NCBI GenBank assembly: GCA_016235495.1
Contig: JACRKH010000021.1
Span: 14,725 to 78,724, forward strand
DNA length: 64,000 bases
Source: Candidatus Woesearchaeota archaeon
Lineage (GTDB): Archaea > Nanobdellota > Nanobdellia > SCGC-AAA011-G17 > GW2011-AR17
Direction of reading: 5' to 3'
Shown here: positions 26,497-62,612 of the stretch, piece by piece
Layout of the letters: the number at the start of each line of letters is the position of its first letter
Numbering within the stretch: the stretch's first letter is position 1
Position numbers and translations under genes: made by a program
The notes under the pieces: generated by a model
What the model saw: only the letters and a program-made list of their open reading frames with translations
What the model was told of the DNA's origin: nothing
Databases searched by the model: none

Positions 26497-29385
26497 ATGG
26501 ATGCATTCCTAGAGTTCTATTCGAGAAAAGAGATACAGGAAGCAATACTTTCTATTTGTGAAGATAGAGAAGTCGCCCCTCGATATAATCAAGGATTCGG
26601 CAGAAGGCCGGATATTATTCAGTATCCAGGGGATATTCTAGAGATGGCAAAAAAAGGTGCGACATCCTTTCACATATCTGAAGAGCGCTGGAATAGTCCT
26701 TTGGATCTCAAGCCAGGCATGGCAAAGAAAGATCTTGATGAAAATAGAAAAGGTTGGGATCTTTGCCTTCCTGATTTTGAGAAGATTCATATTATTGAAG
26801 ATGGCCACCTTAAACAGGTTCAAATTGATTATTTAAATAAATTTAAAGGCAAACAAATAGGGGAAGGGGAGTATCTTTTAAATAAAGACATAAAAATTCT
26901 AAGCCTTAACCCTAAAGATTATAAAATCCAACTTGAGAAAGTTACAAAATTCTATATACGAGAGAAAAGACCCCAAGAAAAAGTATTTAAATTAACAGTC
27001 GAAGATGGGAGAATAGCATGGGTAAGCGAAGATCATCCTTTACTGGTTTTCACAAAGGAAGGAATGAAAGAAAAAGTTGCAAAGAGAATAACTTCTGAAG
27101 ATTATCTTATTATAAGCACAAAAATCCCTTCTCAATTCAAATCCCAAGAATATAACCTATTAGATGAAATTTACAAAAAGAAGGAAAGATTTTCTTATAT
27201 GGTTGGGAAAACAATCTTAGTGAACAAATTTTTAATTAAAAACAACAAAAATAATAAGCTGCAAATAAAATCAACAATATCAAAGTATCTTGGTAAGCGG
27301 GGAATACCTATTAATTTTTTTCCTCTTTCAATAAAAAAGCAAAACCTTAGCATAGGAATGAGGCATTGTAAGAATTTTATACCTTCTAGAATAGACTTGA
27401 CGAGGGATTTTGGGTTCTTAGTAGGTATATATCTTGCTGAGGCAGCATCAGGAGGAACTCGTATAGAATTTGCATTGCATCTTAAAGAAAGAGATATAGC
27501 TGAAAGAATAATTTCGATAATTAATAAAACTTTTTCTACACATTTCCTAGCAGAATCTTGTATAGAGCAAAATCAAGAAAATGGCATTCGTGTGAGGATA
27601 AATAGCAAATTATTAGATACAATATTTGTAGACATATTGGCTCTTGGGAAATTAGCATACCACAAAAAAATTCCTTCATGGATATTCAACGCAAATACCT
27701 CTTTTATAGATGGTTTACTTGAGGGTTATTTTGTTGGAGGTGGGCATTCAAGACTAGACTCCAATGGAAAAAGCCTTACCTTTAGCGTTATAAGTGTGAG
27801 CAAGGATCTAATAGAAGGAATATCTTTATTACTCCAAATCAAAGGCATAAATTATAAGATAAGAAAAGATCTCCCTCCTCAAAAAGGAGGTAAAGGTAAG
27901 CATAAAAGGAATATCCTTGCTATTTGTGGAGAAAAAGATATATCCTTGTTATATCAATCTTGCCCAGAGATATTCTTAAGAAAAAGATTATATCTCACTA
28001 GAAAGATTATAAATCATCCTTCATTACATGAAAAGTATCCTCCATTTTTTGATAAAACTAAAGTTACCTATAAATATCTAAAAAATGAAGTTCAAAGAGT
28101 TAACTTTCTTAGAGCTATACGCACTAAGGCAAGGGTAAATGAAAAACTAGCAAAAATAGCCGCAAATTCACATCTATCTAAGATTATGAAGAGCAATGTT
28201 TTTCCCATTCGTTGTAAGAAAATTGAAGAGTTTTCCTATAAAGGGCTTCTCTATGATATCCAAACAGAAAAGAATCATAATTTTCTTCAAGGTGATGGAA
28301 TTTTTTCACATAATTGTTTAGACATAGACACCCCTTATTGGGATTATGCAAAATGGACTGCATACTACCTTGTTGAAGCCCTCAAATTTCATGATGTTAA
28401 AAGTATTTCTATAAAATTCTCTGGAGGAAAAGGCTGGCATATTCTTGTTCCCTTTGAAGCATTCCCTGATGAAGTGAATGGAATAAAAACAAAAAATCTT
28501 TTTCCTGAAGGCCCAAGAATAATTACTGCATACCTAGAAAATATGATTCGTGAAATGCTCACAAATAAAATTTTAGAGAAAGAAGACATCGCCACAATTT
28601 GCCAAAAGACAGGCAAAAAAAGAGCAGAGATAATGAAAGACAACAAATTTGATCCCTTTTCGCTCATAGAAATAGACACAGTGCTTATTTCAAACAGGCA
28701 TTTATTTCGTGCACCATTCTCCATGCATGAAAAATCAGGATTAGTTTCTATTCCCATACTTCTAAATCATATTCTCGATTTTGACAAACGAGAAGCAGAG
28801 CCAAAGAATGTAAAAAAAATTCTTCCCTTCTTGGAAAGAGAAAAAGTAAAAGGCGATGCAAAAAGCCTCATTATCCAAGCATTCGATTGGTGGGGGAAAG
28901 CCCATGCAAAGACAGGTCCAGATAGTATAGCAGCAGAAAAACAAGAATATTATCTTCCCAAGTCCGCAATAATCGAGGCCTATTTCCCTGAATGCATAAA
29001 GAAAATGCTTTCCAATAACCTCGCAGATGGAAAAAAGCGTGCATTATTTGTTTTAGTAAATTTCCTAAACCACATGGGCTGGAGAGAAGAAGATATAAAA
29101 AAGCGCCTTCTAGACTGGAATAGCAAACAGCCTAGTCCTCTACCTCCTTCCTACATTCTTGGACAGCTTTCCTGGCACAAAAAACAGAAAGAGCATATTT
29201 TGCCGCCAAACTGCTCAAATAAAGCATATTATCAGGATATGGGCCTAGCTTGTCCTCCTGCAGTCTGTGCAAGGTACAAAAACCCTGTGAATTGTGCAGT
29301 CCAAACAGAACGCAGAGCAAGAGAAGCAGAGGCTCGGCAGAAGCCCAAAAAAGAGTTGAAAAAGCCTGAAACCAAGCCTTTATAA
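26497..29385 (+). CDS. priS: DNA primase small subunit PriS interrupted by a large intein, with a Cys-rich C-terminal extension
   Basis: Extein motifs GATSFHISEERW, LCLDIDTPYWDYAKW (DxD) and FSGGKGWHILVPFEAF (SGGRGYH). The 517-aa insertion carries intein blocks. Confidence 0.8.
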   Translation: MDAFLEFYSRKEIQEAILSICEDREVAPRYNQGFGRRPDIIQYPGDILEMAKKGATSFHISEERWNSPLDLKPGMAKKDLDENRKGWDLCLPDFEKIHIIEDGHLKQVQIDYLNKFKGKQIGEGEYLLNKDIKILSLNPKDYKIQLEKVTKFYIREKRPQEKVFKLTVEDGRIAWVSEDHPLLVFTKEGMKEKVAKRITSEDYLIISTKIPSQFKSQEYNLLDEIYKKKERFSYMVGKTILVNKFLIKNNKNNKLQIKSTISKYLGKRGIPINFFPLSIKKQNLSIGMRHCKNFIPSRIDLTRDFGFLVGIYLAEAASGGTRIEFALHLKERDIAERIISIINKTFSTHFLAESCIEQNQENGIRVRINSKLLDTIFVDILALGKLAYHKKIPSWIFNANTSFIDGLLEGYFVGGGHSRLDSNGKSLTFSVISVSKDLIEGISLLLQIKGINYKIRKDLPPQKGGKGKHKRNILAICGEKDISLLYQSCPEIFLRKRLYLTRKIINHPSLHEKYPPFFDKTKVTYKYLKNEVQRVNFLRAIRTKARVNEKLAKIAANSHLSKIMKSNVFPIRCKKIEEFSYKGLLYDIQTEKNHNFLQGDGIFSHNCLDIDTPYWDYAKWTAYYLVEALKFHDVKSISIKFSGGKGWHILVPFEAFPDEVNGIKTKNLFPEGPRIITAYLENMIREMLTNKILEKEDIATICQKTGKKRAEIMKDNKFDPFSLIEIDTVLISNRHLFRAPFSMHEKSGLVSIPILLNHILDFDKREAEPKNVKKILPFLEREKVKGDAKSLIIQAFDWWGKAHAKTGPDSIAAEKQEYYLPKSAIIEAYFPECIKKMLSNNLADGKKRALFVLVNFLNHMGWREEDIKKRLLDWNSKQPSPLPPSYILGQLSWHKKQKEHILPPNCSNKAYYQDMGLACPPAVCARYKNPVNCAVQTERRAREAEARQKPKKELKKPETKPL
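26764..28314 (+). mobile_element. Intein (517 aa) with a LAGLIDADG homing-endonuclease domain, inside priS
   Basis: It starts at Cys (tgc, 26764) and ends at HN (aat, 28312-28314) followed by Cys. Block B is VSEDHPLLVF. LAGLIDADG-like motifs are LVGIYLAEAASGG and IDGLLEGYFVGGGHS. The terminal block is LLYDIQTEKNHNF...GIFSHN. Confidence 0.8.
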
Positions 29386-53134: not shown

Positions 53135-54366
53135 TTCTTCCTCGCTCGAAACAATTCTTTATACACTGCAGTCATCCAGTGGCAGGATCGCATGACTGGA
53201 TATACAGTTAAGTATGCTGCCAATGCCAAGGGGAACCGCCATCTCTCTTTTAAGTTTTTATGTGCCAAATGGTAGATAAAAAGAGCAATACAAAAAGAAA
53301 TTGCAATAGGGAAGTAAATAGTCAGATTTATACCCAAGAAAAATTCTTTTACGCCGGGAATGTGGCCATCCAGAATATACAATGGCCCTAAATGAAAAAC
53401 CTTTAGAATTATTCCATATAATCTTTGACCAAAAGTAAAAGCCAACAAGCTAAACATAATAATAACAGTACCCACAGAAATAATATTCAAAGGATATTGA
53501 AAACTTCCAAGTATCCCATATTTCTTTTTGAAGAGCATCCCCTTATACTTCATATTGTTATAAATAAATCCTCTAAACCATCGCACCCTTTGCTTCCAAA
53601 GTGATGTAAATGTAGCAGGAGCCTTCGTGTAATTAACTGCTTCCTTTGCAAGCTTAATGCTATACCCATGATAGCGCAATCGCATAGCCATCTCAAGATC
53701 CTCCGTGATATTATGCTCATCAAATCCACCATATCTATCAAATATTTCTTTTCTGTACACACTAAGCGCACCAGGAGTAACATGCAGTGTATCAATCTTT
53801 GACATAAGCCCTCGGGTAAATGTCGCAAAGATATATTCCAAATGTTGTATCTTTTCATAAATTGTCTGTGGAGAATAAACCTTAATAGTGCTTATCACTG
53901 CACCAACATCCTTATCCCCAAAATAAGGAACCATATGCCCCAGAGCATCACTCATGACAATGGTATCAGCATCAACACAGGCGACAAACTCTCCATTGGC
54001 CTTACGCAGCCCTTCATTGAATGCATGCGCTTTCATATCCCCGCCATGCCTTTCCTTATAAGCAAGAATAATATGCTCAGAAGGATATTGCGCAATAAGC
54101 TGCCTCGCAATGGAAGAAGTTTTATCTGAAGAGCCATGGTCTACAATAATAATTTCTTTCTTATCAAGAGGATAATCAAGTGTAATCAAGGAGTGTACTG
54201 TTTTCCAAAGTCCTTTTTCCTCGTTATAAGCAGGGACAATGAAGCTAACCTTAGGAAATTCTTGCAAAGCCTTTGGCTTTTCCTCTCTAAGAGAAATAAC
54301 ATGCAGCCAGAATATCCCTACATACAAGCCTATGAAAGATACCCCCCAAATAAACCATCCTATCAT
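53128..54366 (-). CDS. Family-2 glycosyltransferase, processive polysaccharide-synthase type
   Basis: FIVPAYNEE, IIIVDHGSSD, DADTI and QRVRWFRG (QxxRW) motifs, with a C-terminal TM bundle. Confidence 0.7.
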   Translation of the reverse strand: MIGWFIWGVSFIGLYVGIFWLHVISLREEKPKALQEFPKVSFIVPAYNEEKGLWKTVHSLITLDYPLDKKEIIIVDHGSSDKTSSIARQLIAQYPSEHIILAYKERHGGDMKAHAFNEGLRKANGEFVACVDADTIVMSDALGHMVPYFGDKDVGAVISTIKVYSPQTIYEKIQHLEYIFATFTRGLMSKIDTLHVTPGALSVYRKEIFDRYGGFDEHNITEDLEMAMRLRYHGYSIKLAKEAVNYTKAPATFTSLWKQRVRWFRGFIYNNMKYKGMLFKKKYGILGSFQYPLNIISVGTVIIMFSLLAFTFGQRLYGIILKVFHLGPLYILDGHIPGVKEFFLGINLTIYFPIAISFCIALFIYHLAHKNLKERWRFPLALAAYLTVYPVMRSCHWMTAVYKELFRARKKW

Positions 54367-55799
54367 GCACTAACCTTCCAAATTTCTACTCCATCTTTAT
54401 CATAGATTCTATTAAAGCTTTTGGTGTACTGCAGTATAAAAAGGAGGCCATCAGTATCATAGTCCCATAGCTTATTTTTCATGCTGGAATCAATCCATAC
54501 ATAGCGAATATCATACTTTGCAAATAATTCACTGGTTCTATTCAGATCTCTCGATGCAAACAATTCCTGAGAATCACGAAGCCTTTCCTTAGAGTCAGGG
54601 GCAAAAACATAATTCTCATCCATAACATTTTCATGTCCGGATGAAGTAATCCATGACCCCTTGCTATAATCACTAAACACAACACCAGATTCCTGTTCAG
54701 CAAGGAAGGCTATAGCTTCCAGCTCTGCTTCATTCGGTTCTGTGTTGAGAATAGTATTCATTTGTGAAATAGCTGAGAAAACAAACCCCGAAAGAATCAC
54801 TAAAAGAATAAAATAATGATAATATTCGTGAGTCCATTTCCTTTCAGCAAGAAAAATAAATCCCTTTGCAGCAAGAATAATGAGAAAGAGGTTAAGGACA
54901 AGACTGCTTTCCGGAATAAAAAAAGCAAGAGTAAGGAAAAGCAAGACACTAAAGAAAATAAAAAGATGTTCATATTTTTCTCCCCAGAATAAAAGTATAC
55001 CTAATGCTCCCAAGAGGGATATAAAAATGCTCAGCCCATAAGCGCTTCCAAGATCATAAAATAAGGAACCAAGGAGATGGAAATTTCCTCCTTGTACAAG
55101 ATCAATTTGTTGCGGGAGTCCGGCCTTGTAAAAGATATATCCATAATAAAGCCCTGTGACAAGAATAGAGAATAATAGAAGGATAAAAAATAATTTTTTT
55201 CTATCTTTTCGTACAAAGAAGCTATAGAAGCAGAGTAGCAAAAGAAACAAACCTGTAACAATAAGATTAAAGAGTGGTAAAACGAGCACAATAGGAATAA
55301 CCCAAAACTTAAACTTCTTCTCTATAAACAAATAAAACCCGGCAAGTGAGAGGAAGAATGCAATAAATAAACTATTTGTGAAACTAAAGAGATAAATAAA
55401 AGAAGGGGAAAGGATAAACAAAAGTAAGCTGAGATAAATAAAAGTAGCATCCTTGCTAAAATGTTTAAGTATCCTTTCAACAAGTAAAACACTGAGAATC
55501 CCCAATAAAAAAGGAAGTACAACGAGAAGCACACTCGGTGTAGCACTTAACACCAGACCGGTGCCCCATGGGTAGGCAGCAAACCTCCCGCCAAAGCTGA
55601 GAGGATCATACAAAGAATGCAAACTCGCAATTCGGGAATAAAAGAAAGGCTCTGTGCCAATCAAAGGCCCTTTAAGCAGAGGGACAACTAAGAGAAGTAC
55701 GGTACAGAGTGCTAAAAGCACATACCTAACATACCACTTTGTAAATAGTTGCAAATCCATTCTTGAATACTTCCTGGAAGCAATTTTCATCGCTTGCAT
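54363..55799 (-). CDS. Large multi-TM membrane protein with a C-terminal soluble domain (putative GT-C / glycosylation)
   Basis: Paralogous to the next gene; the two share C-terminal motifs (YDIRYVWIDSSMK...VEIWKV versus YGVQYVYFSDKTK...ATIYKVV). Confidence 0.4.
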   Translation of the reverse strand: MQAMKIASRKYSRMDLQLFTKWYVRYVLLALCTVLLLVVPLLKGPLIGTEPFFYSRIASLHSLYDPLSFGGRFAAYPWGTGLVLSATPSVLLVVLPFLLGILSVLLVERILKHFSKDATFIYLSLLLFILSPSFIYLFSFTNSLFIAFFLSLAGFYLFIEKKFKFWVIPIVLVLPLFNLIVTGLFLLLLCFYSFFVRKDRKKLFFILLLFSILVTGLYYGYIFYKAGLPQQIDLVQGGNFHLLGSLFYDLGSAYGLSIFISLLGALGILLFWGEKYEHLFIFFSVLLFLTLAFFIPESSLVLNLFLIILAAKGFIFLAERKWTHEYYHYFILLVILSGFVFSAISQMNTILNTEPNEAELEAIAFLAEQESGVVFSDYSKGSWITSSGHENVMDENYVFAPDSKERLRDSQELFASRDLNRTSELFAKYDIRYVWIDSSMKNKLWDYDTDGLLFILQYTKSFNRIYDKDGVEIWKVSA

Positions 55800-57192
55800 A
55801 TTTTAATTCACGCACATCATAAAGAGCTTTAGTCTTATCGGAGAAATAAACATATTGAACTCCATAATTATCTAAAGCTTTCTTTGCCTTGACAACAGAC
55901 TCTGTCGTAAATATAGTTTGGACATCTAAGATTCTACTGTCTGCTCGAAGAAATTCTGTATCTATAACATTTGTCCGGTCTGCAATAGAAATAATAAGAT
56001 TCCCTTCATAAGCATTTGCAGCAATGACACTATCATGGGCTGTATTAAATTTAATCCAATGTAAAGCCTCAATTTCTGCAGGAGTAACTCCTGTATGTAC
56101 CACTTTCAGCGCGCTTGTCGTCGAAGGAATAAGTAAAGTTGTCACAGTGAGAATAATAAAAATGCTTATAATCAATTTACTTTTTTTTGCAATTTTTGTA
56201 AGGGGTAAATATTCCATAATTTTTGCCATACTGACTGCAGAGACAATGCAAAGTATAATCGCAAGAAATATAATCCCATCCCTGAACGCAATAATACGCA
56301 ATAAGAGCAGACTAAAATCCGCAGCAAGCACTGCGCTAAGCAAAATCATAACCCTGCTCTTTCTTTTGTAAAGAATGAATCCAGCAACACCTAATAGTAA
56401 AGGAATGACACCAACACTAGCAACAGTTTCAAAGAGATTAAAATTCTGGAAAATCTGCCCATAAAGTTCTAAAGGTAAATTTCCCCAAATCGTTGCAAGT
56501 CCTTGTTTAAGATAAAGTTGTTTATAGAGGATAAGATTGACAAGGAGAAAAAAAACGACAAAAAGACCCATACCATCTACTTCCTCTCTTTTCAAGGTTA
56601 AGGATTCAGCAAATATGAGAATTCCAAAAAATAAAAGAGTGAAAAGCATAAGTAAATTCAAAGGCTGCAGTAAAACAAGAATAATAACAGAAGCAAAGAA
56701 CCACATTTTTTTTCTTTCAATCTCCAGAAGAAAATACAAAGTAAGAAGAAAGAGTGGCACAAATACGCTTAGAATAGAAATCTGATTTATGGTTGCTCCA
56801 ATGAAACTAGGAATAAAAGCACTGAGCAACGCTGCAAAGAGTGAGGCATATTCATTCTGAGTAAGCTCCTTTGCAAGAAGATAAACAATAAAAACAATAC
56901 TGCTCGCAAGCAAGGCAGGAAGTAATTTATAGACCACAACATCCGGAAGCGTGGAATTAAAGAAAGCAAGAAAGTAATGAAAGACATGCGTATTAAGAAT
57001 AATATTCCCTCCATAACTTTGGGGATCATAGATCAAGGGAAAAAAATGTTGAAGAATATATTTTGAGTGTCTGAGATTAAAATAAGCCTCATCACTGCTG
57101 TAAAAAGGAACACGAAACAAAAACAGAAGACGAAAACCGAATGCCACAAGAAAAGTCAAGAATAAAATGAGATGCTCTCTTTTGATTCCCAT
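55726..57192 (-). CDS. Large multi-TM membrane protein, a paralogue of the previous gene (putative GT-C)
   Basis: The first loop has SSDEAYFNLRH, which resembles the D-x-x-Y-x-x-x-R loop of STT3/AglB-type enzymes. No WWDYG motif is present. Confidence 0.4.
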   Translation of the reverse strand: MGIKREHLILFLTFLVAFGFRLLFLFRVPFYSSDEAYFNLRHSKYILQHFFPLIYDPQSYGGNIILNTHVFHYFLAFFNSTLPDVVVYKLLPALLASSIVFIVYLLAKELTQNEYASLFAALLSAFIPSFIGATINQISILSVFVPLFLLTLYFLLEIERKKMWFFASVIILVLLQPLNLLMLFTLLFFGILIFAESLTLKREEVDGMGLFVVFFLLVNLILYKQLYLKQGLATIWGNLPLELYGQIFQNFNLFETVASVGVIPLLLGVAGFILYKRKSRVMILLSAVLAADFSLLLLRIIAFRDGIIFLAIILCIVSAVSMAKIMEYLPLTKIAKKSKLIISIFIILTVTTLLIPSTTSALKVVHTGVTPAEIEALHWIKFNTAHDSVIAANAYEGNLIISIADRTNVIDTEFLRADSRILDVQTIFTTESVVKAKKALDNYGVQYVYFSDKTKALYDVRELKYASDENCFQEVFKNGFATIYKVVC

Positions 57193-57193
57193 T

Positions 57194-57916
57194 TTATCTG
57201 CCAAAATCATCAGCATCAAGACTAAGAAGGACTTCGTGAGGGCTTCTCTCTACTTCCAAACCCTCATTTGTTGCAGTGACTGCCTCCTCTTTCTCACTGG
57301 TATTTTTCTTTTTTCTTACCAGTTTTATTTCTTTATCCTTCTTTTCTTCTTCAGGAGCAGGAGTTTCTTCTTGAGGAGTATCCTTCACTGGAGCTTCAGA
57401 GACATCGCTCAGTTTTTCCTGCCTTTCCATAACATCCTGCATCTTCTGTTTCATATTTGCTTCAATGACATCGAAATATTCAAAGAATTTAGGGGCAAGT
57501 TTCAATGTTCTTGTTCTTCCATGCTTTTCAGAAGCAATAAATTCAATATCTTTCAAATGATGAATATGATCATAAGCAGTATTCCCGCGCATTTTAATAA
57601 TATCAGACTGCAGTATAGGCTGTTTGTATGCAATCAAAGCAAGAGTAGCTTGTGTTGGAGCATCCAACTCTGCACCGCTTAAAAGCTTTGTAGAAAGATG
57701 ATTGTACTGCTTTTTTATATTGAGCCTATACTTTCCATCTTCACAAAAAATCTCAAGACCTCCCAGCCTATTTTGATACTCCTTCATAAGCTCATGCATA
57801 GCATCCTTGAGAGAGCCAACACTGCCAATGTTGCAGAACTGTGCAATTTCCTCCAAACTCATTGCCTTCCCAGTAATAAAGAGCACCGCTTCTATCTTAT
57901 TTTTAATTTCCTGCAT
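57194..57916 (-). CDS. scpB: Segregation and condensation protein B (ScpB)
   Basis: Tandem wHTH (IEAVLFITGKAMSLEEIAQ...) and an acidic tail. Confidence 0.7.
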   Translation of the reverse strand: MQEIKNKIEAVLFITGKAMSLEEIAQFCNIGSVGSLKDAMHELMKEYQNRLGGLEIFCEDGKYRLNIKKQYNHLSTKLLSGAELDAPTQATLALIAYKQPILQSDIIKMRGNTAYDHIHHLKDIEFIASEKHGRTRTLKLAPKFFEYFDVIEANMKQKMQDVMERQEKLSDVSEAPVKDTPQEETPAPEEEKKDKEIKLVRKKKNTSEKEEAVTATNEGLEVERSPHEVLLSLDADDFGR

Positions 57917-58035: not shown

Positions 58036-58701
58036 ATGAAATTCTATGAAATAAAACCTGGATTGCGAGGCATAGAAAATATTGCAGGGCAGCCAGTAAC
58101 TTTTTCAGAACTCTATGGAACAAGAATTTGGGATCCAAGTTACACAGAAGGTCTCAATATTCTCACTGCTACAAGAACATTCTGCCTCCATGCACCAGGA
58201 AGAAGATTCAAAGTTTCAGATACATTTCCCTGGAGGATGCTCCATCCAAAATATTTAGATAGAGCTTCATTTGGAGAAAAATCAGTTGTTTCAATAATGG
58301 AAGAAGAATATGCAACAGCTGAGGGAGCAGAATTTATACTTATCCACCCTATTGACTTTCCAAGAGAAACCTATGCTCTCCCTATAAATCATTTCATTAA
58401 CCCTAGGCTCACAAAAGAAGAGCTCACAAAGATAGCCTCGCCAATAGAAAGAGGTCTAGGAAGAAAAGAGGCCTTGGATCATAAAGTTCTTTTCTCCCTT
58501 CTTGAAGAGAATAGTGATATTGTAAAAGAAGTTGTAGAGTATGCATTTGCCCATAATACTTCTGGGTCGCTTCCATTAGAAATAACAATCAAGGATGCAG
58601 GTTGTTATGGAGCAACAATGTTTGCAACGACAGGGTATAGTGAAGGTTTTAGAATAACAAACCAATCATTTAAAGAAAAACTTCTATTTTTTATTCCTTA
58701 A
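58036..58701 (+). CDS. Hypothetical protein, 221 aa
   Basis: An open frame with no recognised domain. Confidence 0.35.
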   Translation: MKFYEIKPGLRGIENIAGQPVTFSELYGTRIWDPSYTEGLNILTATRTFCLHAPGRRFKVSDTFPWRMLHPKYLDRASFGEKSVVSIMEEEYATAEGAEFILIHPIDFPRETYALPINHFINPRLTKEELTKIASPIERGLGRKEALDHKVLFSLLEENSDIVKEVVEYAFAHNTSGSLPLEITIKDAGCYGATMFATTGYSEGFRITNQSFKEKLLFFIP

Positions 58702-60185
58702 CTCAAAGCAAAACGCAGAATTGCAGCAATCTTTCCAATATCCCTCAGCTGTTCACCTTCGCTCGTATCAGTGCTGATAATAAAAAGTTCCGCACCTGAC
58801 TGCTCTGCAACTTCCTCGAAATGATCAACCTTCTCATCATCCATAGACTCAGAGACAAGCAATGTATGCACAGCACCCATTTCTAAAGCCCGGCTCACTT
58901 CTGCCTCGCCATAAGCAACTTTTTCAGGCTCTGTTGCAAGCAGCTTGAAAAACTTGCTCATAATCTCCCTCTCTTCGGTAATAGCTTCCTTCGCAAGAGC
59001 ATCCTTGCTTTTCTCGACGAGCTCTCGCAGTCCAAAATCTCCTGTATAGCTCAGATCCTGAATGCTGACCACTTTCCTTTTTAACTGCTCATTCAAAAAA
59101 CCTTCATCAATAAAATGATTTTTCGTCATACCTGGCCCGCCAAGAAGTATTCCTTTTAATTCTTTAACCTCAAGAAAAGCTTTGTTCGCTGCTTCGCTAA
59201 TTCTATTAAAAAATTCTTTTGTCGCCTCTTCCCTTATTCTTGCAAATCTCTGAGCAGAATTATGCACAACAATTCCTTCAGCGATAAAATTTTCATTCTC
59301 TACTTTTATATCAATAAGCCTCATAGTTTTATCTTCAACAACAATTTTTTTTATGACTTCTCCCTTGCCATCATCATTGAGAAGCATCATTCCTTCTCGA
59401 AGTTCTTCGGCAGCTTTAGTTGTACCATCCTCTAAGAAGAAAAGATGATTTGCAGATGCAGTTATTGCTTCAGAAGCAGTAATCACATAAATTTTATTTT
59501 TTGTGACATCCCATTTCTCCAAAACTTTACTGGGAACAAAATCTTTTTTTGTAAAATCATAACTTAATACCATATCTCCAATTTCAAGATCTTCCAGAGG
59601 AACCCACTGCCCATCATCAAGACAAACCGCAGTTTCCGGATGTAAACACTGCCCTCCAGCCCTTGTCTTTCCAGGAACAGCAGAAGTCAGTTCAGTAACC
59701 TGCTGAATTTGTGTCCCTTTGAGAAAACCAATATTCCCTTCTCTTTTATCAAGAACAATAAGTCCATAAGTCTCCCGTACATCCATCATTTCTTTCAAGA
59801 CCTCAAGAATAAAAGTTTGGTCGCAGCGATACAATCGTATACGCAGCGGCTGAGGAGGCTCAATGCTGAATACCTGAATGTCTGTTTTTCCTTCTTTATC
59901 AGAAATATTCCCTGAAAATACAGCAAGCCCATTCTCAGGAGTTTTCTTAAACAGCCGCAGATGTCGAATCATTCTTTCTAAAGAATCAATAACATGTAGC
60001 TGTGTTGTTTTATCTTTAATGTTTGATGCAGTACCCTGCTCCTGTGCAAGATGTTGAATAATTTTAATAAGTTCATAGCCAGCAGGGACATACACAGAAA
60101 CAAGCTCAGTATGTCTCCCTCTAATATTTTGCAAGCTGCGTACAAAACGCTTCAATTTTTGTTTTTCTTTGGTGCTTATCTGCAT
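58698..60185 (-). CDS. prf1: Peptide chain release factor aRF1 interrupted by a mini-intein after the GGQ motif
   Basis: An eRF1 domain-1 NIKS-like (TASNIKD), GGQ at aa 177-179, and eRF1 domain 3 in the C-terminus. Confidence 0.85.
   Translation of the reverse strand: MQISTKEKQKLKRFVRSLQNIRGRHTELVSVYVPAGYELIKIIQHLAQEQGTASNIKDKTTQLHVIDSLERMIRHLRLFKKTPENGLAVFSGNISDKEGKTDIQVFSIEPPQPLRIRLYRCDQTFILEVLKEMMDVRETYGLIVLDKREGNIGFLKGTQIQQVTELTSAVPGKTRAGGQCLHPETAVCLDDGQWVPLEDLEIGDMVLSYDFTKKDFVPSKVLEKWDVTKNKIYVITASEAITASANHLFFLEDGTTKAAEELREGMMLLNDDGKGEVIKKIVVEDKTMRLIDIKVENENFIAEGIVVHNSAQRFARIREEATKEFFNRISEAANKAFLEVKELKGILLGGPGMTKNHFIDEGFLNEQLKRKVVSIQDLSYTGDFGLRELVEKSKDALAKEAITEEREIMSKFFKLLATEPEKVAYGEAEVSRALEMGAVHTLLVSESMDDEKVDHFEEVAEQSGAELFIISTDTSEGEQLRDIGKIAAILRFALS
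59259..59648 (-). mobile_element. Mini-intein (130 aa, HINT domain only) in aRF1 immediately after GGQ
   Basis: The extein KTRAGGQ is followed by CLHPETAVCLDDGQ (block A), then ...EGIVVHN, then Ser. Its size leaves no room for an endonuclease domain. Confidence 0.8.
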
Positions 60186-60224: not shown

Positions 60225-62612
60225 CTAAATTATAATGCTCAATTTATTCCCAAAACTTATTTTTTCAGCTTTGGTGACAGCCTTAAAATCATCAATAAAA
60301 CCCGCAACATCTTTTTCATTCATTGGTAGAATAATTTCCTTGACATTTTCTTTCAAAGAAAGATTTCTTTCTGATTTTGCTTTTCGCACAAGAGAAATAA
60401 TTTCAATAATTTCATCACCCTTCTTTTCTATATCCTTTTCTATTAATTTTTTATCCGCGATTGGCCAGGATTCAAGGTGAATAGATTTCTTTTCTTTGAA
60501 AACACTTTGATAAATTTCTTCAGTAACATAAGGCATAAGTGGAGCAAACATTTTCAATAAATCCAATAAACACTGTGAAAGAGTATACTGCGCTGAAGCC
60601 TTTGCTTCTTTTCCTCTTGCATCTGAGTTGTAGAGTCTATCTTTAACAATTTCGAGATACAAATCACAGAATGTAATCCAAAAGAATTTTTCTGTTTCAG
60701 ATTTCACTTTAGAATATTCATAAATCTCAAAATTTTCTGTATTTGCTACAATAAGTTTTTGCAGTTTAGAGAGCATCCATACATCAAATGCTTCCATTTT
60801 TCCTTTCTTCCCATTAAAATCAGCAAACTGAGGAACACAGAACCGCGTTGCATTCCAAAGCTTGGTAATTGTTTTCTGCCCTGTAAACAAATCTTTCTCA
60901 AGATATCGCAAATCATCACCGAGCTTCGATCCTGCTGCCCAGAATCGCAGAGCATCAGCAGGATATTTCTTCAACACTTCCCCAGGCTCTATAGTATTGC
61001 CCTTAGATTTATGCATAGATTCCCCCTTGGGATCAAGCACATGCCCAGAGATAACAATATTTTTCCATGGAGCTTTTCCCTCATGGTAGACACCTTGTAC
61101 AATAGTATAGAAAGCCCAAGTTCGAATGATATCATGTGCCTGTGGTCTGAGACTGCAAGGATACATTTTCTCAAAATCAATATCATATCCTTTGTCTTTC
61201 GCCCAATTGAGTATAATCTGCGGGCTCACACTAGAAGTTGCCCAAGTATCCATAACATCTTTCTCACCTTCAAACTCTTGTGAACCACAGGAGCATTTTC
61301 CTTTTGGCTTTGCTGCTAAAGGATCAACAGGCAGTTGATTTTTATCAGCAACAAGAACATTGCCGCACTTTTTACAATTCCACACAGGAAAAGGAACACC
61401 AAAATGTCTCTGACGAGAAATGCACCAGTCCCAACCTAATCCCTCAATCCAGTGCTCGTACCGAGTGCGCATAAATTCTGGATGCCAAGAAATCTTTTTT
61501 CCTGCTGCAATAAATCTTTCTTTATTCTCTAAAATTTTAATGAACCATTGTTTCGTGCTAAGAAATTCAATTTCTGTTCCGCATCGCTCATGCACATTTA
61601 CAGTATGTCGAATAGCCTTCTTTGTCACAAGCAGTTTTTCTTTTTCCAAATCATGAAGAATTTCTCGTCGGGCATCTTTAATCTTCAACCCTTCATATTT
61701 CCCAGCAAGAGCATTCATTTTTCCATCACGGGTAAAAACAACTCTTGGGCTTAATTGTCTTCTATTGACAGCCTCAACATCATTCTTATCTCCATAACTG
61801 CAAATCATCAATATCCCTGTTCCTTTTTCCATCTGAACCGAAGGATCAGGGAATATAGGAACACTATGATGAAATAAAGGAACTATTGCACTCTTTTCTA
61901 AAAGGTGGGTATATCTTTTATCATTAGGATGTACAAATATTGCAACACAGGCGGCAAGTAACTCAGGTCTTGTTGTTGCAATAATAATCTTTTCTCCATT
62001 TTCAACAGTAAAATAAATATCATTGAAAGTAGAATCAAAATCTTTATCTTCTAAATCTGCCTGCGCAATAGCAGTCTGGCACTGGACACACCACATGCTT
62101 GGTGCAATGTGTTGGTAAACTAAATCTTTTTGATATAAATCTAAGAAAGATAACTGCGAAGTTTTGATAGAATGTGCATCAATGGTAGAGTATGCCTCAG
62201 AAAAGTCACAGCTCATCCCAATAATTTTCCAGTCATTGATAAAATCAGGTTTAATTTCTTTTATAGTTTTGTCACAGAGCGCAACAAACTCAGCTCTGCT
62301 CATCTTTGTAGATTTTACATTTTTTAATTTTTCAACAAGCCTTTCTGTAGGCAGACCATTATCATCAGTGCCAAAAGGATAAAACACATTTTCTCCCTTC
62401 ATTCTATGGTATCGTGCAATAAAATCCTGCTGGCTATAAGAGAATGCATGCCCAATATGCATTTTCCCAGAAACAGTTGGTGGGGGGGTATCAATAGCAT
62501 AAAGTTTTTTCTTAGAGTTTTTATCAAACTTGTAAATGCCTTCCCTCTCCCAATATGCTCTCCACTTTGCCTCAGATGCACAAGAGTCATACTTTTCAGC
62601 AAGTTCTTTCAT
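60225..62612 (-). CDS. valS: Class I aminoacyl-tRNA synthetase, most likely valyl-tRNA synthetase
   Basis: HIGH (PPPTVSGKMHIGHA), ISRQ and KMSKS-like (MHKSKGN) motifs. The 795-aa size fits a compact ValRS better than IleRS or LeuRS. Confidence 0.6.
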   Translation of the reverse strand: MKELAEKYDSCASEAKWRAYWEREGIYKFDKNSKKKLYAIDTPPPTVSGKMHIGHAFSYSQQDFIARYHRMKGENVFYPFGTDDNGLPTERLVEKLKNVKSTKMSRAEFVALCDKTIKEIKPDFINDWKIIGMSCDFSEAYSTIDAHSIKTSQLSFLDLYQKDLVYQHIAPSMWCVQCQTAIAQADLEDKDFDSTFNDIYFTVENGEKIIIATTRPELLAACVAIFVHPNDKRYTHLLEKSAIVPLFHHSVPIFPDPSVQMEKGTGILMICSYGDKNDVEAVNRRQLSPRVVFTRDGKMNALAGKYEGLKIKDARREILHDLEKEKLLVTKKAIRHTVNVHERCGTEIEFLSTKQWFIKILENKERFIAAGKKISWHPEFMRTRYEHWIEGLGWDWCISRQRHFGVPFPVWNCKKCGNVLVADKNQLPVDPLAAKPKGKCSCGSQEFEGEKDVMDTWATSSVSPQIILNWAKDKGYDIDFEKMYPCSLRPQAHDIIRTWAFYTIVQGVYHEGKAPWKNIVISGHVLDPKGESMHKSKGNTIEPGEVLKKYPADALRFWAAGSKLGDDLRYLEKDLFTGQKTITKLWNATRFCVPQFADFNGKKGKMEAFDVWMLSKLQKLIVANTENFEIYEYSKVKSETEKFFWITFCDLYLEIVKDRLYNSDARGKEAKASAQYTLSQCLLDLLKMFAPLMPYVTEEIYQSVFKEKKSIHLESWPIADKKLIEKDIEKKGDEIIEIISLVRKAKSERNLSLKENVKEIILPMNEKDVAGFIDDFKAVTKAEKISFGNKLSIII

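Follow-up and report, generated by a model that had tools for sequence, protein, structure and literature searches.

The window analysed here is a stretch of 64,000 nucleotides (nt) from the Candidatus Woesearchaeota archaeon assembly GCA_016235495.1 (contig JACRKH010000021.1, positions 14,725 to 78,724). It encodes the class-I peptide chain release factor aRF1 as a precursor, in which a 130-codon mini-intein sits in frame directly after the catalytic GGQ motif. The components of this locus, with amino acids (aa) numbered along the precursor unless an intein position is stated, are:

58698..60185, minus strand: the aRF1 precursor gene, 495 codons plus stop, comprising N-extein, mini-intein and C-extein (open reading frame (ORF) list, TIGR03676, Pfam eRF1_1/eRF1_2/eRF1_3)
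59649..60185, minus strand: the N-extein, aa 1-179, with domain 1 including NIKD and the start of domain 2, ending in KTRAGGQ (alignment to 4af1)
59649..59657, minus strand: the GGQ peptidyl-tRNA hydrolysis motif, aa 177-179, whose Gln is the -1 extein residue (DNA read directly)
59259..59648, minus strand: the mini-intein, of class 1 by its motifs, 130 aa, precursor aa 180-309, HINT domain only (PF14890, TIGR01445, TIGR01443, AlphaFold2, Foldseek)
59646..59648, minus strand: intein Cys1 (precursor Cys180), the predicted block A nucleophile, TGT (DNA read; invariant in 110/110)
59445..59456, minus strand: block B, S65-A-N-H68, a Ser variant of TxxH (S65 and H68 invariant in 110/110)
59259..59312, minus strand: blocks F and G, D113...N120-F121...V128-H129-N130, with the terminal Asn predicted to cyclise (alignment of 110)
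59256..59258, minus strand: the +1 Ser (aa 310), predicted C-extein nucleophile, TCT (DNA read directly)
58698..59258, minus strand: the C-extein, aa 310-495 plus stop, with the remainder of domain 2 and domain 3 (aligns to 4af1 188-413, from SAQRFARLR)

The host protein is a class-I release factor of the aRF1/eRF1 family. Its 495-aa translation scores 402.8 bits against TIGR03676, the NCBIfam equivalog aRF1_eRF1 (cut-off 234.7; E=1.4e-120), and matches to eRF1 domains 1, 2 and 3 (PF03463, PF03464 and PF03465) are all above their cut-offs. The NIKD motif of stop-codon recognition lies at aa 55-58 (NIK at 55-57) and the GGQ motif at aa 177-179; the top PDB matches of the protein are the solved aRF1 structures 4af1 and 3agk. 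A protein 100% identical to it is deposited at NCBI as MBI5797610.1, ‘hypothetical protein HZA98_01760 [Candidatus Woesearchaeota archaeon]’. Searches of all ORFs of at least 60 aa in the window, with an intein profile (hmmsearch) and with the extein (phmmer), returned no second aRF1 and no further HINT domain of this family.

The boundaries of the insert can be placed to the residue. In the phmmer alignment to PDB sequences, query residues 6-179 correspond to residues 12-187 of Halobacterium aRF1 (4af1), ending at GGQ, and query residues 310-453 to residues 188-331, beginning with SAQRFARLR. The flanks thus meet in the solved protein at residues 187 and 188, with no extein residue lost or repeated around the insert. 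Read directly from the DNA, the codons GGA GGG CAG (59657..59649) are followed by TGT (59648..59646), and at the other end the His-Asn codons CAT AAT (59264..59259) are followed by TCT for Ser (59258..59256). The interval 59259..59648 is 390 nt or 130 codons, which read CLHPETAVCLDDG...IVVHN and continue into SAQRFARIREE. In the precursor the N-terminal junction is AGGQ-CLHPETAVCLDDGQ... and the C-terminal junction ...VVHN-SAQR; taking out the 130 aa restores AGGQSAQRFAR and leaves a protein of 365 aa, the length seen in intein-free relatives. A first-pass annotation of the window had described a 495-aa aRF1 ORF with a 130-aa segment, running from Cys1 to IVVHN and followed by Ser, directly after GGQ, whose removal would leave GGQ-SAQRF and a 365-aa extein. 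The profile matches, the direct reading of the DNA, the gap-free alignment to 4af1 and the intein-free relatives all agree with that description.

The isolated 130 aa exceed the cut-offs of three intein profiles: PF14890 Intein_splicing (42.9 versus 35.8), TIGR01445 intein_Nterm (28.5 versus 24.5) and TIGR01443 intein_Cterm (21.8 versus 15.6). The first-pass annotation had proposed a search of this type with intein models. The pretoxin family PF07591 PT-HINT also matches the window intein, at 34.9 bits, because the fold is shared. A profile scan of the 130-aa copy detected no homing-endonuclease domain. Since a match to an endonuclease family is absent and the length is only 130 aa, the window copy is a mini-intein and not a full-size homing intein; with all class-1 catalytic residues present, it is the HINT-only element that had first been proposed.

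An alignment of 110 homologous mini-inteins was used to count conservation at each position. Eight intein residues are invariant in 110/110 sequences (C1, S65, H68, D113, F121, V128, H129 and N130) and seven more (W46, K50, F71, A80, L83, N120 and A123) are conserved in at least 96%, while the remaining columns are mostly conserved at about 20-70%, with an overall column identity of ~50%. By their motif positions, the invariant residues comprise exactly the predicted class-1 splicing set: the block A Cys, the block B S/T-x-x-H, the block F Asp and the block G His-Asn. S65 occupies the position that the Thr of TVNH has in the solved BIL2 structure 6y75, as seen in a profile alignment. The residue at +1 is Ser at every junction that we found, whether in protein clusters, in fetched loci or among collected relatives. 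The first-pass annotation had pointed to non-splicing insertions at the same point in other aRF1 proteins as the finding that would speak against an intein; the homologues at this site keep Cys1, His-Asn and the +1 Ser.

Three further candidate readings of the sequence were rejected. Class 3 inteins have no Cys1/Ser1 nucleophile and carry a Trp(B)-Cys(F:4)-Thr(G) triplet; here Cys1 is present, block F has Asp113 instead of Cys, and block G reads V-H-N. A redox trap in the form of a Cys1-Cys9 disulfide was also considered. The window copy has Cys at intein position 9, where Glu, Asn and Leu are commonest among the 110 mini-inteins, and the idea was discarded on the grounds that this position is unconserved. 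Lastly, the intein is AT-richer than its exteins, with a G+C content of 0.344 versus 0.397 and 0.422, and of 0.215 versus 0.313 and 0.376 at third codon positions; as a sign of recent foreign origin this difference is mild and, for a segment of 390 nt, uninformative.

In its AlphaFold2 model the insert has a HINT fold. Prediction from the single sequence gave an unusable model (predicted local distance difference test, pLDDT, 50.9), and an alignment of 41 homologous mini-inteins was needed; with it the model is all-beta, with a pLDDT of 98.1 and a predicted template-modelling score (pTM) of 0.89. A Foldseek search of the PDB with this model yielded 61 matches at E<=1e-3, and the top matches listed belong to inteins, BIL domains and the HINT domains of Hedgehog proteins. 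The query-based template-modelling scores (TMq) are 0.83 for the gp41-1 intein (30-31% identity), 0.86 for NpuDnaB, 0.89 for SspDnaB, 0.84-0.87 for Mtu RecA, and 0.90-0.92 for the BIL domains of Tetrahymena (BIL2; 6y75/6tmm) and Clostridium thermocellum (2lwy). A profile made from the 41 sequences matches the same chains among PDB sequences, with E down to 3e-17.

The GGQ-site intein of aRF1 is widespread in DPANN archaea: it occurs in Woesearchaeota, Nanoarchaeota, Nanohaloarchaea and Iainarchaeum. A search with the full precursor against a collection of 5.8 billion proteins gave 3969 matches, and among the 120 best-matching clusters listed, which span 100% to 50% identity, Cys follows GGQ directly in 120/120, with His-Asn and then Ser in all of the 115 whose C-terminal junction pattern was found. 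Five of these listed clusters, of 782-784 aa, carry PF14528. In parallel, a scan of GTDB with one genome per species, using patterns that included the C-terminal junction VHNSAQRF, gave 113 relatives, of which 79 loci were fetched; an intein is readable between GGQ and S-x-x-R-F in 77 of these (L051 and L062 have no readable junction). The element is present in more than 100 independent assemblies, which excludes an assembly artefact.

These inteins come in distinct size forms. Loci L001-L053 (except L051) hold mini-inteins of 130-151 aa, within an overall range for minis of 127-151 aa, and most of the corresponding record titles, taken as deposited, name Candidatus Woesearchaeota or Nanoarchaeota, while one names Iainarchaeum. 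Loci L054-L079 (except L062 and L063) hold forms of 431-507 aa, seven of them from Nanohaloarchaea and one from a record titled Thaumarchaeota; several third-party annotation (TPA) bins titled ‘Methanosarcinales’ are probably mislabelled. Overall the large aRF1 inteins range from 420 to 507 aa and have two LAGLIDADG_3 stretches. Identity between their HINT cores and the minis is 41-52%, and when L054 is aligned globally its endonuclease region takes the place of mini-intein residues ~91-109. Between the two forms stands L063 (Candidatus Woesearchaeota B54_G15), with an intein of 275 aa and a single LAGLIDADG_3 remnant, which looks like an endonuclease caught mid-decay. In the full-size inteins of L054 (1501-1818 region) and L060, the two LAGLIDADG motifs are preceded by a Cro/C1-type HTH_3 domain (intein residues ~127-183), which presumably gives the homing endonuclease a further means of binding DNA.

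Outside this family resemblance falls off: against the best 150 HINT proteins of a 50%-identity library the window intein shows 26-45% identity, mostly ~30%, and most of these proteins are other hosts, while 10 of them are aRF1s again, with Cys after GGQ. The top non-aRF1 matches (P0121, P0123, P0128 and P0135) have an unusual architecture of 3-5 tandem HINT domains followed by a Tim44-like domain.

The predicted spliced protein of 365 aa was then used as a query to collect 175 relatives, among which occupied and empty alleles can be compared. The ~50 nearest extein relatives of the window protein all carry the intein, and the mini-intein appears, from this sample of sequences, to be fixed in the window clade. 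Among intein-free aRF1s the closest is P0271, at 68% identity and with a length of exactly 365 aa. In all, 55 of the 175 are intein-free, with lengths of 349-379 aa (mostly 361-367) and GGQ|S in every one. Pairs of occupied and empty alleles with exteins 95-99% identical differ grossly only in the exact element; in one of these, P0115 with a 420-aa intein and the empty P0291, the exteins are identical at 346/364 residues. Among 111 mini-bearing proteins, intein and extein distances are correlated (Pearson 0.76; 0/500 Mantel permutations reached the observed value), and the intein diverges about 1.5 times faster than the extein. Because of the size forms, the near-identical occupied and empty pairs and the co-variation of intein and extein taken together, the pattern across the family fits the classical homing cycle: invasion, fixation, decay of the endonuclease to a vertically inherited mini-intein, and occasional precise loss.

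From the anatomy, fold, exact boundaries, conservation, distribution and presence/absence polymorphism documented above, we conclude that the element is very probably a canonical class-1 mini-intein lodged between Gln179 and Ser310 of a Woesearchaeota aRF1, and the residue of a homing cycle. That it splices is suggested by the strict invariance of its catalytic residues in an otherwise fast-evolving domain, together with the essential nature of the host gene. Under this model, translation would yield the 495-aa precursor with the 130-aa HINT domain directly after GGQ. The Gln of the GGQ motif must enter the peptidyl-transferase centre, as is established from the structure and function of eRF1. 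Because the HINT domain is fused directly to this Gln, peptide release by the precursor is not expected, its GGQ loop being presumably unable to reach that centre. Splicing would then proceed in four steps: an N-S acyl shift at Gln179-Cys180, helped by Ser65 and His68 of block B; trans-esterification onto the hydroxyl of the +1 Ser310; cyclisation of Asn309, helped by His308, which would free the intein; and an O-N shift producing the Gln-Ser peptide bond. The product would be a 365-aa aRF1 reading ...AGGQSAQRFAR.... As for its origin, the ancestor would have been a LAGLIDADG homing intein that targeted the highly conserved DNA coding for GGQ. Its endonuclease, once located at what are now mini-intein residues ~91-109, would have been deleted, and the leftover mini-intein would have been inherited vertically and become fixed in the window clade. 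Precise loss would be rare, and imprecise loss would ruin an essential catalytic motif.

Several points weigh against this interpretation. Splicing, the inactivity of the precursor and the evolutionary route are all inferred. Block B has Ser instead of the usual Thr, yet this Ser is found throughout the family. At intein residue 67 the window copy carries Asn (SANH), the sole Asn in the set of 110, in which this residue is Asp in 106 and Glu in 3; TxNH and TxDH are both present in active inteins, and Asn67 is hence not counted against activity. One further occupied and empty pair, P0090 with a 130-aa intein and the empty P0289, is identical at 361/363 extein residues but comes from a source without contigs on record and is weaker evidence than the 346/364 pair. 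Finally, the count of one aRF1 refers to the 64-kb window, and a second, intein-free aRF1 may be encoded elsewhere in the genome.

An unlikely alternative is that the mini-intein has been retained as a conditional switch, in which a redox, temperature, salt or nutrient cue would tune the amount of active release factor post-translationally, and any precursor left unspliced might additionally compete for the A site of the ribosome. It is likewise doubtful that such a switch on termination has been co-opted across the Woesearchaeal clade, with splicing tied to an environmental or host-association cue. If it had, the precursor, which keeps the domains for stop-codon recognition and aEF1alpha binding, could compete at stop codons while being catalytically dead, and symbionts with reduced genomes could throttle protein release globally or promote readthrough. 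The persistence of an endonuclease-free intein throughout the clade, co-diverged with its host down to ~55-60% extein identity, is compatible with such a role, as is the location in the catalytic motif itself, where the activities of precursor and product should differ sharply. Conditional splicing has, moreover, been documented for other archaeal inteins, such as that of RadA (Topilina et al., 2015, as cited in PMC4760082). However, no sensor is indicated, the candidate Cys1-Cys9 disulfide being ruled out by the unconserved C9; the persistence is more simply explained by the lethality of an imprecise deletion inside GGQ; and the empty alleles common in sister lineages mean that the intein is dispensable.

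Far less probable is a HINT insertion that has degenerated and lost splicing, with aRF1 tolerating it as a permanent extra domain. Splicing of the window copy is deduced from sequence comparison, the copy has the unusual Asn67, and some homologues have been named ‘polymorphic toxin-type HINT domain-containing protein’ by NCBI, all of which would suit such a view. Against it, the catalytic residues and the +1 Ser are invariant in 110 divergent copies whose remaining sequence is ~50% conserved, a pattern expected only under selection for splicing. Likewise, a 130-aa domain on the Gln of GGQ would be hard to square with entry of the loop into the peptidyl-transferase centre, and the empty alleles differ by exact removal of the element only.

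There is next to no likelihood that the element is a BIL or pretoxin HINT domain that cleaves or rearranges without ligating its flanks: although the best structural and profile matches include the BIL domains 6y75/6tmm and 2lwy, PF07591 PT-HINT matches at 34.9 bits as noted, and multi-HINT proteins are the top non-aRF1 matches in the 50%-identity library, the rank of the latter comes from several summed domains that are each only 27-32% identical. The element itself breaks into a motif that is conserved universally in an essential protein; it has Cys1, His-Asn and the +1 Ser; and at the very same site there are relatives with endonucleases as well as alleles that lack exactly this element. 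BIL and PT-HINT domains belong to the variable parts of proteins that are not essential and are often secreted, and a +1 nucleophile is usually missing.

The interpretation as a class-1 mini-intein can be set against three groups of known systems. The first comprises the solved class-1 mini-inteins: gp41-1 (6qaz, cyanophage-like), Npu and Ssp DnaB (4o1r, 1mi8), the splicing domain of Mtu RecA (3ifj) and Spl DnaX (7cfv). The aRF1 intein resembles these in its length (~125-140 aa), its HINT fold (TMq 0.82-0.89 at 22-31% identity) and the absence of an endonuclease, as well as in Cys1, the xxH of block B, the Asp of block F and the terminal His-Asn. It differs in its host and site, directly after GGQ, in having SxxH rather than TxxH in block B, and in the family's own W46 and K50 (both at least 96% conserved). 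In addition, several of the solved mini-inteins were engineered by deletion of the endonuclease or are split halves, whereas the aRF1 intein is natural and contiguous.

The second group consists of the archaeal LAGLIDADG inteins: that of PriS in the window, and those of PolB, RFC, MCM, RadA, aIF2 and VMA (Novikova et al., 2016; PMC4760082). Common to these and to the aRF1 family are a position in whichever catalytic motif of an essential, single-copy gene is most conserved, a patchy presence and absence, and the same homing cycle, and the full-size aRF1 inteins have two LAGLIDADG_3 motifs. The window copy of the aRF1 intein, in contrast, has lost its endonuclease, the host is a core translation factor, and some of the full-size aRF1 inteins (L054 and L060) add an HTH_3 domain. 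The third group, the BIL and pretoxin HINT domains (6y75, 2lwy; PF07591), supplies the top-scoring structural and profile neighbours and shares the compact HINT fold. Unlike the aRF1 intein, with its +1 Ser and its endonuclease-bearing relatives at the same site, these domains do not lie in conserved motifs of essential proteins and are generally devoid of a +1 nucleophile.

What is new here is apparently the host protein and the insertion site, which have gone unrecognised although they are abundant in public DPANN data; the kind of intein is textbook class-1. The first-pass annotation had suggested that the site might be undescribed, and the literature consulted holds nothing to contradict this. 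Full-text searches, with InBase and subscription journals outside their scope, turned up no intein reported as occurring naturally in aRF1 or eRF1; what came back were papers on engineering and on genetic-code expansion, or unrelated matches. The main text of the intein census of Novikova et al. (2016; PMC4760082) does not mention aRF1, and it states that translation-core proteins ‘contain few inteins’. The release-factor survey of Burroughs and Aravind (2019) describes no natural aRF1 or eRF1 intein, and a paper on Bodo saltans virus mentions inteins and eRF1 separately. Beyond what was first noted for the window, there is thus a large DPANN family, with endonuclease-bearing forms and empty alleles, which is already in public databases and unrecognised there.

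The naming of these proteins at NCBI (P0009, P0015, P0064, P0272 and P0299, among others) reflects this situation: intein-free members are called ‘peptide chain release factor aRF-1’, while intein-bearing ones are called ‘hypothetical protein’ or ‘polymorphic toxin-type HINT domain-containing protein’. NCBIfam has ‘intein-containing’ exception models for RtcB and for a radical-SAM protein, and these are the sole intein-specific models of that sort matched by the window protein; an intein-containing aRF1 model is not among its NCBIfam matches. TIGR03676 is one of the archaeal phylogenomic marker genes, so that insertions of 130-500 aa, if left unmasked, could distort the alignment of this marker in DPANN lineages.

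With this family a class-I release factor, at its catalytic GGQ, joins the list of intein hosts. At a single site the homing cycle would be represented in full, by endonuclease-bearing inteins, a decaying one, minis and empty alleles, and well over a hundred natural variants make the family a handy system for studying the persistence of inteins in the reduced genomes of DPANN. Protein engineers could draw on it for natural mini-inteins that are compact, at ~130 aa, and are flanked by Gln(-1) and Ser(+1). The concept of the intein mechanism is left unchanged.

The remaining features of interest in the window are a second intein and the neighbours of the aRF1 gene:

26764..28314, plus strand: the PriS intein, 517 aa, LAGLIDADG_3, inside the PriS ORF 26497..29385 (DNA primase small subunit)
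60225..62612, minus strand: a class-I aminoacyl-tRNA synthetase, on one side of the aRF1 gene
57194..57916, minus strand: ScpB, on the other side of the aRF1 gene

The boundaries of the PriS intein read ...KGWDL|CLPDFEK...GIFSHN|CLDIDTPYW, placing it directly before the Asp-x-Asp stretch (CLDID). As the first-pass annotation had stated, this is a second intein in another gene and of another type: a 517-aa LAGLIDADG intein as against a 130-aa mini. It had also proposed comparing the two HINT domains, which turn out not to be closely related: BLASTP gives only a 22-residue match over blocks F and G, at E=0.096, and a common origin of the aRF1 and PriS inteins is unsupported.

Around the aRF1 gene there are also ORFs that have no match in Pfam. 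Two of these are long and lie on the minus strand (54363..55799 and 55726..57219). A third, of 221 aa (58036..58701, plus strand), converges on the aRF1 gene, with a 4-base overlap (58698..58701) at the stop codon of the latter.

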